This document shows, piece by piece, positions 1 to 30,260 of a stretch of 64,000 nt of DNA (positions are counted from its first letter, which is position 1; every line of letters begins with the position of its first letter). The notes beneath the pieces are model-generated. The model saw nothing but the letters and a program-made list of their open reading frames with translations. It made no database searches and had not been told where the DNA came from. The translations under genes and the position numbers were made by a program. Source of the DNA: an uncultured Candidatus Saccharibacteria bacterium (GTDB taxonomy: Bacteria; Patescibacteriota; Minisyncoccia; Minisyncoccales; Staskawiczbacteraceae); contig CAYZNK010000001.1 in assembly GCA_964479955.1 (NCBI GenBank), positions 144,091-208,090 of the forward strand, given 5' to 3'.

Positions 1-635
1 AGCAAAAAGAGCTTGGGGTTGCTTTAATTGACATAGGTTCATCAACAACTTCTTTGGCTGTCTTTGAGGAGGGAGATTTAATACATCTTGCAATCTTTCC
101 GATAGGTTCAGCGAATATTACAAACGATATTGCAATAGGGTTAAAAATAGAAGTTGCCATGGCAGAGTCAATTAAGAGGCAGCACGGAACATGTATATTC
201 TCCAAAAAAGAAAAAGAATCTTCAAAAGAACAAACCCCCAGAAAGATTGAAGTTTTTGAAAAATCTTCCCTAACCTCTTTTACAAAAAAAGATTTGGTTG
301 ATATTATCGAGCCGAGGGTATCTGAAATATTAGACTTGGCGCAAAAAGAGCTTAAAAAAATCGGCAGGCAAAAATTGCTTCCCGGAGGAATTGTTCTAAC
401 AGGCGGAGGAAGCAAATTGTCTAAAATAAAAGAACTCACAAAAGAATCTCTGGAGCTTGTTTGTGAAATAGGGACTCCAAAGAACATATTAGGAGTTCAA
501 GAAGACCCTTCTTTGGCAACTGTGGCAGGTTTGGCTTTGGAGGGGGTTGATTTTGATGAAGAACCAGGTATACTGGGGATTACAAAGGGATTTGGGTCAA
601 AAATTAAAAAAATTATAAGGATTTTTGTGCCCTGA
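1..635 (+). CDS. ftsA: Cell division protein FtsA, C-terminal part (5' end lies outside the window; reading frame begins at nt 3)
   Basis: Translation QKELGVALIDIGSSTTSLAVFEEGDLIHLAIFPIGSANITNDIAIG...GGIVLTGGGSKL is a typical actin-like FtsA 2A/2B subdomain. It lies directly upstream of ftsZ. Confidence 0.85.
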   Translation, partial: QKELGVALIDIGSSTTSLAVFEEGDLIHLAIFPIGSANITNDIAIGLKIEVAMAESIKRQHGTCIFSKKEKESSKEQTPRKIEVFEKSSLTSFTKKDLVDIIEPRVSEILDLAQKELKKIGRQKLLPGGIVLTGGGSKLSKIKELTKESLELVCEIGTPKNILGVQEDPSLATVAGLALEGVDFDEEPGILGITKGFGSKIKKIIRIFVP

Positions 636-657
636 TATTAACGAATAACGAATTTGA

Positions 658-697
658 ACAATCTGCGAATTCGTGCGTTCGCAGATTATTTTTTTGT
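658..697 (+). terminator. Rho-independent terminator after ftsA (stem atctgcgaa/ttcgcagat, then T7)
   Basis: A 9-bp perfect stem at 661-669 and 679-687 with an 8-nt loop, followed by tattttttt at 688-696. Confidence 0.6.
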
Positions 698-709
698 AAT
701 AATTATTTA

Positions 710-814
710 CCCTTCACCTAAATAAATTTTGGGGGAGGGAAAGAAGATTTTAATTTATAATAAGCAAAATTTTTAAAATTCATTTTTGAAATATAAGCTT
801 ATTTAGGTGAAGGG
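710..814 (+). promoter_or_regulatory. Perfect 16-bp inverted repeat (cccttcacctaaataa at 710-725 and ttatttaggtgaaggg at 799-814) bracketing the ftsZ ribosome-binding site; candidate anti-SD/SD translational control element
   Basis: The arms are exact reverse complements. The downstream arm contains the AGGTGA SD and abuts the ftsZ GTG start at 814. The 73-nt loop is AT-rich and carries a tataat. Confidence 0.45.
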
Positions 815-1734
815 TGAATCCTCAAATTAAAATTGTTGGAGTAGGAGGGTCGGGGTCCAACACCATTTCCAGAATGGCAAAGTTTAACATACAAGAAGTG
901 GGACTTATTGGAGTAAATACAGATGCCCAGGCTTTGCATTTTTGCAAGGCGCAAAAAAAAATTTTAATAGGAAAAGAAACAACCCACGGATTGGGAACAG
1001 GAATGGATATTAACTTGGGGAAATTATCTGCACAAGAGGCCCAGGGAGAAATTTCAGAGAGTCTAAAAGGAGCCGATATGGTTTTTATAACTTGCGGATT
1101 AGGCGGAGGAACTGGGTCTGGAGCTTCCCCTATTATTGCTGAAATTTCAAAGAGTCTTGGAATTCTGACAATTGCAGTTGTGACAACGCCTTTTTCCTTT
1201 GAAGGAGAGCAAAGGAAAAAAATTGCAGAAGCCGCTTTGAAAAATCTAAAAGAAAAGGTGGATTCTCTCTTGATAATTTCCAATGACAAACTTTTAAAAA
1301 TTATTGACGAGAAAACAACCGTTTCAAACGCTTTTCTAATGTGTGATGATATTTTAAGGGAGGCTGTTAGAGGAATAACAGACTTGATTTTAGTGCCCGG
1401 AATTATTAATATTGATTTTGCTTCTTTGGTTTCAATCATAAAAAATTCAGGTAACGCCTTATTTGGGGTTGGCAGGAGCTCTGGCGAAAACAGGGCGGAA
1501 ACGGCTGCAATAGCGGCAATAAATTCTCCTTTGCTGGATTTTTCAATAAAAGGAGCAAAGGGGGTTTTATTTTCTGTTTTTGGAAATGATGTCACTCTAA
1601 ATGAAATCCAGAGAGCAGCTGAAATTATCACAAAAAATGCTGACCCTAAAGCCCAAATTATTTTCGGGGCAGTAAAAGACAACACCCTGAAAAAAGGCGA
1701 GTTGAAAATTTCAGTAATTGCTACAAAATTTTAA
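814..1734 (+). CDS. ftsZ: Cell division GTPase FtsZ
   Basis: Carries the GGGTGSG tubulin signature and an N-terminal IKIVGVGGSGSN. GTG start with an AGGTGA SD. Confidence 0.95.
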   Translation: MNPQIKIVGVGGSGSNTISRMAKFNIQEVGLIGVNTDAQALHFCKAQKKILIGKETTHGLGTGMDINLGKLSAQEAQGEISESLKGADMVFITCGLGGGTGSGASPIIAEISKSLGILTIAVVTTPFSFEGEQRKKIAEAALKNLKEKVDSLLIISNDKLLKIIDEKTTVSNAFLMCDDILREAVRGITDLILVPGIINIDFASLVSIIKNSGNALFGVGRSSGENRAETAAIAAINSPLLDFSIKGAKGVLFSVFGNDVTLNEIQRAAEIITKNADPKAQIIFGAVKDNTLKKGELKISVIATKF

Positions 1735-6556: not shown

Positions 6557-7051
6557 TTATGCGCAGACAAGCTGCGGAGTTTCTGCAGGTTTTGCAGAGG
6601 AAGGTTGCACCCTCTCAAACGATATTTCTTTTTCGTTGTCTGAAAATGATGCATAATAGGCATAAACTTTTGTGCGATATGCCCTGGAAACTATTTCTAA
6701 AGCTTTAATCAGGTCTTGTCGTTCGGTGTCATTTCCTGCCCGGCCAGATCTCTTTAATTGCTCATATCTTTTGCAATCCTGATGAGCAATTAAGACAATG
6801 CGCTTTATATCAAAATGCTTAGTAAAACAGTCTAGCTGTCCCGTTGCGGACCAAAAACAATTTGTCATTTCTGTTTGCCTGGCTAAAACCCCTGCTCCGC
6901 CCGCTATCTGAATTGCCAAAAAGTCAAATTCACCCATCCCTAATTCTTCTCTGATAAAAAGGTCATGGGCGAGCTTAAACCTTGGATCCAGACAATGCAC
7001 CACTATTGTTTCTGGGACAACACTAACAGCCTTATAACTCTTCCTTCTCAT
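6557..7051 (-). CDS. Small beta-class carbonic-anhydrase-like protein (putative)
   Basis: Cys-x-Asp-x-Arg (VVHCLDPRF) and His-x-x-Cys (IAHQDCKR) motifs sit at beta-CA zinc-ligand spacing. 164 aa, and locally GC-richer than its surroundings. Confidence 0.4.
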   Translation of the reverse strand: MRRKSYKAVSVVPETIVVHCLDPRFKLAHDLFIREELGMGEFDFLAIQIAGGAGVLARQTEMTNCFWSATGQLDCFTKHFDIKRIVLIAHQDCKRYEQLKRSGRAGNDTERQDLIKALEIVSRAYRTKVYAYYASFSDNEKEISFERVQPSSAKPAETPQLVCA

Positions 7052-7111
7052 AACTCACTCTCTCTTTCAATTGTGAAAGACCATCTTTTGTTGCGCTATT
7101 CCAAAAACGCA

Positions 7112-13426: not shown

Positions 13427-13471
13427 GCGGGAGCTTTTGCCCCGCTTTTTTATTGCAATAAAAAAGCGGGC
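13427..13471. terminator. Tandem hairpins including a perfect palindrome (cccgcttttttatt/aataaaaaagcggg); possible bidirectional terminator
   Basis: GC-clamped, AU-rich palindromic stem at 13441-13470 preceded by gcggg/cccgc. It lies between convergent small ORFs. Confidence 0.4.
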
Positions 13472-23138: not shown

Positions 23139-23582
23139 CTAACTGCAGAGAGATGCCCATCTCCTGAAGAAAGATTTCTTCGGTTTTGGGTTAAAATCAG
23201 TGCTTACTCCCCACAAATTACCACTTTGAATAAGCCCCAAGATCTTGTCGCGAAGCTTGTTCAAATTGCCTGCCGACCTTGCCTGTACGGCAATGGTCAA
23301 TGTACGGCAGGCGTACTTTACATCGTTTGCAAACCTGCCCTCTTTGACAAGCTCTTTGAACCCATCGCTACGCACTTGGCCCCAAGCATCACCGAGGTAA
23401 AAATATGCCAGAGGAGGCTCTCTGTGGCGGATGTTATCAAGGGGGTCCCTAGATGAAACCTCAATCTCCTCTTTCCAACTCACTGTCATACCTTCTGGCA
23501 CAACAAAGTTTTCTGGCAAGGAAACAAATTGAAGTTTCCTTGCAACCTCCCCCTCGCTGTTTAAAAGAACCAAACTAGACAT
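23139..23582 (-). CDS. Hypothetical protein (147 aa) in GC-rich island, strong SD
   Basis: AAGGAGA SD 6 nt before an ATG. About 48% GC against a roughly 32% background. A divergent promoter lies upstream. No recognisable domain. Confidence 0.5.
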   Translation of the reverse strand: MSSLVLLNSEGEVARKLQFVSLPENFVVPEGMTVSWKEEIEVSSRDPLDNIRHREPPLAYFYLGDAWGQVRSDGFKELVKEGRFANDVKYACRTLTIAVQARSAGNLNKLRDKILGLIQSGNLWGVSTDFNPKPKKSFFRRWASLCS

Positions 23583-23679
23583 AGCCATTCTCCTTTCTTC
23601 TTTGCGTCTTGAGTGGTCTCAAGATCGCTAGTGGAGTGAACAAATCCTATATATTATATATATCACATAAATATTATTT

Positions 23680-26340: not shown

Positions 26341-26375
26341 AATTTAAAAACATTGTTCCGGGGTGTTTGCGTATA

Positions 26376-26421
26376 CCCCGTTAGAAATTTACGATTTTAA
26401 AATGGCAAATTTCTAACGGGG
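26376..26421 (+). promoter_or_regulatory. Stable stem-loop (15-bp perfect stem ccccgttagaaattt/aaatttctaacgggg, 16-nt loop) in the long leader upstream of the surface-protein gene
   Basis: Exact reverse-complement arms. No U-tract follows. It sits roughly 130 nt upstream of the ATG at 26555. Confidence 0.45.
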
Positions 26422-26554
26422 TAAATCCCGGGCAAATTATAAACAATGGACAAGTCGCAGATTCGTTGTTAGTACGTAAAGCAATGAGTCAATATGGTCG
26501 ACCGGCGAGAAATAAAATTATTATAAATTTAACTAAAGAAATACACACACAACA

Positions 26555-30184: not shown

Positions 30185-30230
30185 TACTTGCCTCTCACCT
30201 TGCTTGTGACAAGGTTGCGAGAGAAAAACA

Positions 30231-30260
30231 AAAACTCCCCTTAAGGGGAGTTTTTGTTTC
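30231..30260. terminator. Bidirectional intrinsic terminator between the convergent surface-protein gene and the Wzy_C gene
   Basis: Perfect stem aaaactcccc/ggggagtttt with loop ttaa, then tttttgtttct. An additional upstream hairpin lies at 30192-30226. Confidence 0.75.

Follow-up and report, generated by a model that had tools for sequence, protein, structure and literature searches.

Comparative evidence for a hairpin-forming insertion at the start codon of ftsZ in a Candidatus Staskawiczbacteria genome

The inverted repeat at the ftsZ start

Close to the left end of a 64-kb stretch of metagenome-derived bacterial DNA (the whole stretch, hereafter called the window), the 3′ part of ftsA is followed by ftsZ, an essential cell-division gene, and the translation start of ftsZ coincides with one end of a perfect inverted repeat. 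Its arms are cccttcacctaaataa (710-725) and ttatttaggtgaaggg (799-814), each the reverse complement of the other without a mismatch; both the sequence and the coordinates reported in an initial annotation of this DNA are exact. The 16-nt repeat lengthens to 21 nt (705-725 / 799-819) if one DNA mismatch is accepted, which corresponds to a G816·U708 pair in RNA of the plus strand and to A·C in RNA of the minus strand. The right arm includes the Shine-Dalgarno (SD) sequence AGGTGA at 805-810. In the reading frame of ftsZ, a TGA (808-810) is followed by the GTG at 814-816 as the first start codon, and in relatives whose FtsZ begins with MNPQIK the ATG aligns with this GTG. Of 100 random sequences of 64 kb generated by a first-order Markov model, 5 had a perfect inverted repeat of at least 16 nt with a gap of 10-200 nt, and the repeat at the ftsZ start is the sole long-range inverted repeat of high identity in the window.

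The initial annotation interpreted this arrangement as a device for promoter-dependent translational control, in which transcripts reading through from ftsA would be silent and those initiated between the arms would be translated. The comparison with related genomes points to a different origin, that is, a non-coding insertion that landed within the ancestral start codon and whose terminal repeat now provides the ribosome-binding site of the gene.

Filled and empty sites among relatives

Relatives of FtsZ were sought in genome and metagenome collections and through look-ups of exact proteins, which gave 164 loci. The comparison of upstream regions covers the 150 of them with a placeable start and no less than 260 nt of sequence ahead of it. 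The FtsZ relatives assign the window to Candidatus Staskawiczbacteria (Patescibacteria/Candidate Phyla Radiation, CPR). In nearly all relatives ftsZ starts with ATG, the protein begins with MNP(Q/K)IK and the leader is short, AT-rich and devoid of an SD. Inverted repeats that involve the ftsZ start region exceed 12 nt in none of the 150. Likewise, the mean probability of being unpaired over positions -14 to +3 is 0.01 in the window versus a median of 0.52 in the 150 relatives.

The most informative loci are L161, L162 and L163, a sister lineage whose FtsZ is 95% identical to that of the window; the window and these three loci are mutual nearest relatives, with at most 89% FtsZ identity to all others. 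In the sister lineage the end of ftsA and a terminator hairpin are found as in the window and are followed by gtaatatttATGtatcctcaaatt, the sequence past the terminator reading ...gattatttttttgtaatatttATGtatcctcaaatt. The spacer between ftsA and ftsZ measures 69 nt in L161 and 178 nt in the window. In a global alignment, window positions 504-705 correspond to 1300-1501 of L161 and positions 815-930 to 1502-1617, with a single 109-nt gap at 706-814. An equivalent parse of the same gap consists of a 4-nt indel plus exactly 710-814, namely the 105 bp between the outer ends of the repeat.

More distant loci have the same empty configuration. In the outgroups L164 (89% FtsZ identity), L081 (88%), L082 (86%), L001, L002 and L004 the gene begins directly with ATG AAT CCT, without repeat and without SD; the start reads ATG TAT CCT CAA in L161 and ATG AAT CCT CAA in most relatives. 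The filled site is thus found in the window and in a second strain, L165, described below, and the empty site in L161-L163, L164, L081 and L082. Since the outgroups all have the plain ATG AAT CCT, parsimony places one insertion in the lineage of the window. The opposite event, a deletion in the relatives, was rejected because it would require several precise deletions each restoring an ATG, a judgement made with no dedicated tool. A different gap placement proposed by MAFFT, with the left arm set against the 5′ codons of ftsZ, was also discarded, as the similarity between the element and the 5′ end of ftsZ is non-significant (119 of 500 shuffles score as high or higher).

Other relatives with a non-ATG start are of a different kind: L084 and L187, which start with GTG or TTG, have point-variant start codons behind short AT-rich leaders. 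Separately, the 86% identical L186 (JGI Ga0172381_10094994, positions 1-10) also starts with GTG at the corresponding codon, and only 1 nt of contig precedes this GTG (aGTGAATCC). A contig break exactly at the insertion junction could stem from a repeat there or from presence/absence polymorphism, and L186 is uninformative in this respect.

Anatomy of the junction and the imported Shine-Dalgarno sequence

The ancestral junction can be written as ...ATTTA/TGAATCC, where the slash divides the A from the TG of the start codon, and the window junction as ...ATTTA/CCCTTCACC...GGTGAAGGG/TGAATCC. As the alignments show, a hairpin-forming, non-coding insertion of 105 bp (at most 109 bp) split the ancestral ftsZ ATG after its A, and it entered this Staskawiczbacteria lineage after the split from the closest known relative. 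Accordingly, the present GTG is, by alignment, composed of the last G of the element and the old TG. Moreover, the terminal repeat brought with it the AGGTGA that replaced an AT-rich leader without SD. When its AGG is aligned to the end of the canonical GGAGG, the spacing between SD and GTG is, by our own calculation, about 6 nt. The five additional stem pairs beyond the perfect repeat (ATTTA with TGAAT), the G·U included, are formed by flanking sequence older than the element; judging from the empty sites, the target happened to be nearly palindromic.

An SD of this strength is rare in the window. A duplex of -6.5 kcal/mol or stronger is predicted for about 6 of the 54 long open reading frames (ORFs), and about 48 of the 54 have AT-rich leaders without any SD. 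Because some 90% of the genes in the window are SD-less, the SD of ftsZ is exceptional for the genome and not only for its neighbourhood; the initial annotation, which called it the only strong one nearby, was right about the motif and understated its rarity. This distribution suggests that initiation in this Staskawiczbacteria genome is mostly SD-independent. Examples of other SD-bearing genes are those at 6557-7054 and 23139-23618, both on the minus strand, and those starting with TTG at 2054 and 20509.

Table 1. Coordinates of the features at the ftsA-ftsZ junction
Feature	Position in the window	Strand	Basis
ftsA, 3′ part, with promoter-like TTGATT-16-TATACT at 547-574	3..635	+	promoter scan
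Terminator-like hairpin (660-687) and T-run (689-695) between ftsA and ftsZ, older than the insertion	660..695	+	motif scan, relatives
Left flank ATTTA, ancestral target; final A is the A of the old ATG; pairs with 815-819	705..709	+	L161, ...gtaatATTTA/TGtatcc
Inserted element, 105 bp, non-coding, AT-rich loop, bounded by 16-bp inverted repeats	710..814 (alternative 706-814)	+	alignment with L161
Left terminal inverted repeat, anti-SD arm, contains TCACCT	710..725	+	sequence match
G-tract UUUGGGGGAGGG, predicted local pairing with the left arm (710-722), competitor of the long-range stem	728..739	+	fold
Weak promoter-like site in the loop, TTAATT-18-TAAAAT, 8/12	750..779	+	best plus-strand site in the loop
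Right terminal inverted repeat, outward-facing SD AGGTGA at 805-810, last base G814 opens the start codon	799..814	+	SD:anti-SD duplex -6.7 kcal/mol
GTG start codon made at the junction	814..816	+	alignment with relatives
ftsZ, 306 aa	814..1734	+	Pfam Tubulin and FtsZ_C

The insertion in a second strain

The same insertion is present in L165, an independent Logan assembly of run SRR8925719, which has an identical 178-nt spacer. Window positions 438-1061 are identical in L165, and 31 differences are found elsewhere in the 3057 overlapping nt. In ftsZ the two strains differ by 20 synonymous and no non-synonymous substitutions, and the encoded proteins are identical. Since only synonymous changes separate the ftsZ genes of the two insertion carriers, the gene is under purifying selection and, on this evidence, ftsZ is still functional, expressed and required in the strains that carry the insertion.

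The divergence between the two strains is unevenly distributed, with no difference over the 624 nt (438-1061) that comprise the end of ftsA, the insertion and the 5′ end of ftsZ, and 23 in the next 690 nt (1062-1750). This mosaic points to recent recombination, or to a sweep of the insertion-carrying segment.

Predicted folding of the ftsZ leader

The plus-strand RNA of positions 700-830 (131 nt) folds with a minimum free energy (MFE) of -35.2 kcal/mol (z = -5.07) and forms all 21 pairs of the extended repeat, the duplex of the arms alone (21 bp, one G·U) accounting for -29.6 kcal/mol. The minus strand folds at -25.7 kcal/mol (z = -3.0). With the left arm in the RNA, the probability that 803-816 is unpaired is 0.004, and it rises to 0.51, 0.37 and 0.52 for RNAs with 5′ ends at 726, 768 and 804, respectively. 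Consequently, the suggestion of the initial annotation that the upstream arm hides the ribosome-binding site of ftsZ is borne out in silico (0.004 with the arm versus 0.37-0.52 without it): with both arms present, AGGTGA and the GTG of ftsZ would be hidden at equilibrium.

This stem is predicted to have a competitor. The left arm and the G-tract at 728-739 form a local hairpin of 12 bp (-15.8 kcal/mol, z = -3.2), and an alternative full-length conformer lies at -44.1 kcal/mol versus -47.8 kcal/mol for the MFE structure, that is, 3.7 kcal/mol apart, with 803-816 unpaired at 55%. As for known RNA families, Rfam searched at gathering thresholds gave no family at the ftsZ leader and no curated match for the repeat-bounded segment; with E values up to 10 there were only chance matches (E of at least 0.28), including hairpins resembling miRNA precursors at 710-814.

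Nature of the inserted element

In size, ends and composition the insertion resembles a miniature inverted-repeat transposable element (MITE). It is 105-109 bp long, below the 500 bp of this class, and has no coding capacity, as no ORF in it exceeds 23 aa and only ORFs of 21-23 aa overlap it. It has perfect 16-bp repeats at the indel boundaries, within the range of about 4-30 bp for the terminal repeats of MITEs. In addition, it is an AT-rich element in AT-rich intergenic DNA, its transcript is predicted to fold into a stable stem-loop, and filled and empty sites occur among close relatives. The anatomy of the element fits the hallmarks of prokaryotic MITEs summarised in PMC10969869. Both this paper and PMC2649163 describe the anatomy of MITEs and their effects on neighbouring genes, which include outward promoters and cutting of the terminal repeats by RNase III. 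Because of the perfect terminal repeats at the indel boundaries, the AT-richness, the absence of coding capacity and the hairpin formed by the whole element, we assign it to the MITE/REPIN type by anatomy and infer its mobility from the same sequence features. The reading that we favour, with moderate confidence, is therefore that a MITE/REPIN-like, non-coding palindromic insertion replaced the initiation region of ftsZ, the SD-hiding stem being a by-product. The hairpin would then follow from the terminal repeats, and it may nonetheless have regulatory consequences in the lineage of the window.

Other identities for the segment were considered. A small ORF in the loop (TTG at 729, 15 codons) has no support, and an integron attC site was rejected as there is no GTTRRRY/RYYYAAC at the ends, a comparison made with no dedicated tool.

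A number of observations weigh against the MITE/REPIN-like reading. The flanks, ...ATTATTTA on one side of the element and TGAATCC on the other, contain no direct repeat, hence no target-site duplication, which lowers the claim of a MITE without excluding it, as some transposon families make none. Neither a second copy of the element nor one of the 16-nt terminal repeat (up to 3-4 mismatches) was found in the 64-kb window, in a further 9.2 kb of the same genome (L165) or in about 0.9 Mb of the loci of relatives, and in the 64-kb window no transposase partner and no other match to the terminal repeat was identified. The left junction is ambiguous by 4 nt, the right one being exact. Furthermore, a consensus promoter scan gave no plus-strand site within the loop, a search of the window and L165 for a signature motif of RNase III was negative, neither the RNase III gene nor the 16S anti-SD sequence of the organism is in the 64-kb window, and the functional consequences of the hairpin are computed values throughout.

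The searches behind these negatives were of several kinds. Short-query blastn of the element, its arms and its loop against the window and the 164 loci returned AT-rich chance matches only, and a fuzzy search of both the window and L165 for the terminal repeat, allowing as many as 4 mismatches, returned nothing. A 14-mer match in L051 lies within the ftsA coding sequence and was discarded as chance. Also discarded were 20 exact 16-mer matches in viral contigs, followed mostly by G+C-rich sequence of coding appearance, none of which has a partner arm within 300 nt; their count is close to the estimated chance number, and the pattern of paired arms gave no match in viral contigs.

A real insertion need not be a transposable one. 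Recombination, whether illegitimate or homologous, or template switching during replication could have produced the segment as a one-off patch, with ends that are incidental or were homogenised by quasi-palindrome correction. The single copy in about 73 kb of genome, with none in the related loci, and the missing target-site duplication both agree with such an event, as does the identity of 438-1061 between two strains with 3% divergence immediately downstream, a pattern suggestive of recombinational mosaicism. Against it stand the perfect 16-bp repeats lying exactly at the indel boundaries, the fact that neither arm derives from local ancestral sequence, the lack of significant similarity between the element and the 5′ end of ftsZ, and a whole-element hairpin, AT-richness and size that match MITE/REPIN anatomy. 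All in all, we consider a one-off patch rather unlikely, while giving it serious weight.

The evolved regulatory hairpin envisaged by the initial annotation, with anti-SD and SD arms keeping read-through transcripts silent and loop-started transcripts active, appears improbable. The predicted properties of the leader do lend it some appeal: the stem hides SD and GTG very effectively, the single mismatch is a G·U on the plus strand only, the plus strand folds better than the minus strand (z = -5.1 versus -3.0), the competing local hairpin makes the leader near-bistable, and the loop has a TATAAT and a promoter-like site of 8/12. The pairing is nevertheless absent from all 150 homologous regions, and the corresponding site of the 95% identical sister is empty, which argues against evolved promoter-dependent control of FtsZ. 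The initial annotation had itself named missing conservation or covariation of the pairing as grounds for refutation, and among the 150 homologous regions there is no pairing that could covary. The G·U and the five extra pairs come from the older flanking target and not from the element; because these pairs stem from pre-existing flanks, the strand-specific G·U is not evidence of selection on RNA structure. As to the proposed start within the loop, TATAAT is indeed present at 756-761, although with no usable -35, the best site of the loop reaching only 8/12, and the loop has no strong plus-strand promoter. Finally, the segment is identical in the sole two strains that carry it, and selection on the pairing is not assessable from them.

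That the repeat is a palindromic chimera of assembly with no biological existence is very improbable, even if the source is a metagenome-assembled genome: the independent Logan contig has the identical spacer amid diverged sequence, and the repeat is internal and short, encloses unique sequence and leaves the frame and start of ftsZ intact. Least credible is an inverton, in which the repeats would be recombinase sites and flipping of the 73-bp core would toggle ftsZ transcription, for although the repeats flank an AT-rich core with promoter-like hexamers on both strands, their outer ends are the insertion boundaries, as for transposon termini, both assemblies (window and L165) share one orientation, toggling off an essential gene is implausible and, compared with characterised invertible promoter segments, a 73-bp core falls short of the length that known invertase synapses require.

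Expression of ftsZ downstream of the hairpin

Some elements of the expression of ftsZ precede the insertion. In the relatives the ATG of ftsZ lies 14-25 nt past the T-run that follows the terminator-like hairpin, which leaves no room for a promoter between the two, and ftsZ evidently depends on read-through from ftsA past this hairpin. The promoter-like TTGATT-16-TATACT within ftsA recurs at this position in 9 of the 18 nearest relatives. It might serve ftsZ from within ftsA, as promoters do in E. coli, or simply reflect conserved codons (GVDF...GILG). The terminator-like hairpin, in turn, may be an attenuator setting the FtsA:FtsZ ratio. With its T-run it occupies 644-697 in the window, 1440-1493 in L161, 1432-1487 in L081 and 1436-1490 in L082. 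Its structure is conserved: L161 differs by a G·U change, and L081 and L082 by two compensatory pair changes (C-G to T-A, G-C to A-T). It is wholly absent from L164.

Transcripts initiated upstream of ftsA or at a promoter in its 3′ end would contain both arms and would be closed at equilibrium. Following de Smit and van Duin, initiation should drop by orders of magnitude where a stem of such stability covers the SD and the start codon. Since the leader is predicted to be closed and ftsZ is nonetheless functional, some route to its opening is needed, and three can be envisaged. In the first, transcription would start within the element, giving a transcript that lacks the left arm; a start site inside the element is possible, and is called for by this reasoning. 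The second would rely on co-transcriptional timing: until the right arm has been synthesised, the left arm would stay locked in the G-tract hairpin. In the third, RNase III would cut the 21-bp stem, as with the Correia elements of Neisseria. We rank the first two as roughly equal and both above the third.

On the minus strand, a promoter-like TTCACC-17-TATATT (9/12) runs from 818 to 790 of the window, with the -35 in the right terminal repeat, and points leftwards into the element. A transcript from this promoter-like site would be antisense to the leader and, as it would include the SD arm in copy, could titrate the anti-SD arm.

A bolder extension of the favoured reading would see in the element a portable translation-initiation cassette, that is, a mobile palindrome with outward-facing SDs in its terminal repeats and perhaps an internal promoter, which could enter the start codon of ftsZ, an essential gene, in a minimal-genome CPR bacterium without lethal effect. 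Its near-bistable leader, with a closed stem and an open conformer of two hairpins, would tie FtsZ synthesis to the 5′ end of the transcript or to co-transcriptional timing, and would represent a riboregulator of cell division caught at birth. We regard this as a long shot.

Relation to known systems

The closest functional analogue appears to be the Correia element (CREE) of Neisseria, the bacterial MITE studied in most depth, a non-coding element of about 100-150 bp with terminal repeats of about 16-26 bp that is found directly upstream of genes. When co-transcribed, the CREE terminal repeats form a long hairpin, and these elements provide outward promoters, act as RNase III substrates and alter the expression of neighbouring genes (PMC2649163, PMC10969869). 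The analogy does not extend to membership, which cannot be claimed for want of the TA duplication; the 26-bp terminal-repeat consensus of the Neisseria type is apparently not found in the element of the window either, and a relationship by sequence is not expected between different phyla. The copy number of CREE exceeds 100 and their insertion duplicates a TA target, whereas the element of the window was found in one copy and without duplication, between flanks that read TTTA and TGAA instead of TA and TA. A further difference is that the latter sits within a start codon and supplies both the SD and the first base of that codon; we know of no report of a CREE in such a position.

REPINs and the palindromes mobilised by transposases of the IS200/IS605 type (Y1) offer a second term of comparison. 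These are palindromes of about 70-110 nt with two inverted repeats that form one long hairpin, inserted with no target-site duplication beside short AT-rich motifs and provided with sub-terminal hairpins, as reported by Bertels and Rainey in 2011 and in work on IS608. In the window the sub-terminal hairpins would be those at 710-739 and about 759-803. Typical of REPINs are a copy number in the tens to hundreds and the association with a RAYT gene, neither of which was observed for the element of the window in the sequence searched.

As regards the hidden SD, leaders that sequester this sequence include RNA thermometers and the anti-SD stems of phage MS2 and of hok mRNAs, all cases of general translational occlusion (de Smit and van Duin). 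The leader of the window is alike in that SD and start codon are paired with upstream sequence and that access would be set by the 5′ end or by a folding intermediate; in particular, its open metastable conformer resembles the kinetic window of the MS2 maturation gene. The known leaders are, however, conserved and covarying, while the stem described here is lineage-specific and belongs to no Rfam family. In E. coli, the small RNA DicF and the antisense RNA StfZ pair at the ribosome-binding region of ftsZ, and promoters for this gene lie within ftsA (PMC5069750, PMC9628754). What is shared is occlusion of the initiation region by complementary RNA, which sets the FtsZ level in E. coli and would do so in the window, and the ftsA-ftsZ junction as a regulatory hub; the E. 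coli RNAs act in trans or as antisense and are kept in enterobacteria, whereas the segment of the window lies in cis and arrived with the insertion.

The locus thus represents a clean natural case of a small palindromic insertion overwriting the initiation region of an essential cell-division gene in an SD-poor CPR genome. What is unusual is the combination of an insertion inside an essential start codon that regenerates a start, the import of an SD and a near-bistable leader. It also calls for caution, in that an anti-SD/SD repeat, however striking, can be what a mobile element has left behind and not an evolved riboregulator. At present it is a single-locus anecdote; further copies, if they exist, would add a MITE-type element family for CPR bacteria and provide a natural experiment on how much perturbation of FtsZ translation is tolerable. 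In a full-text search, the one match combining MITEs and the Candidate Phyla Radiation concerns diversity-generating retroelements and not an element of this kind.

Other features of the window

The FtsZ of the window and of about 120 relatives is 306-313 aa long, except for two N-terminally extended calls of 319 and 328 aa, and in more distant Paceibacteria it reaches about 376 aa. The conserved C-terminal peptide of FtsZ normally binds FtsA. The short FtsZ ends right after FtsZ_C, and the linker and the FtsA-binding C-terminal peptide are apparently absent, although ftsA is adjacent.

Downstream of ftsZ, a long leader (1735-2068) precedes nrdD. It has a good promoter-like TTGACC-16-TAAAAT at 1844-1871 and, as a rarity in the window, the strong SD GGCGGAGGG at 2038-2046, followed by the TTG at 2054, and Rfam gave no family in 1735-2068. 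Elsewhere in the window, perfect or near-perfect palindromes with short loops are found at 13441-13470, 30226-30259 and 26374-26423 (20, 17 and 30 nt, respectively), which are probably intrinsic terminators between genes.

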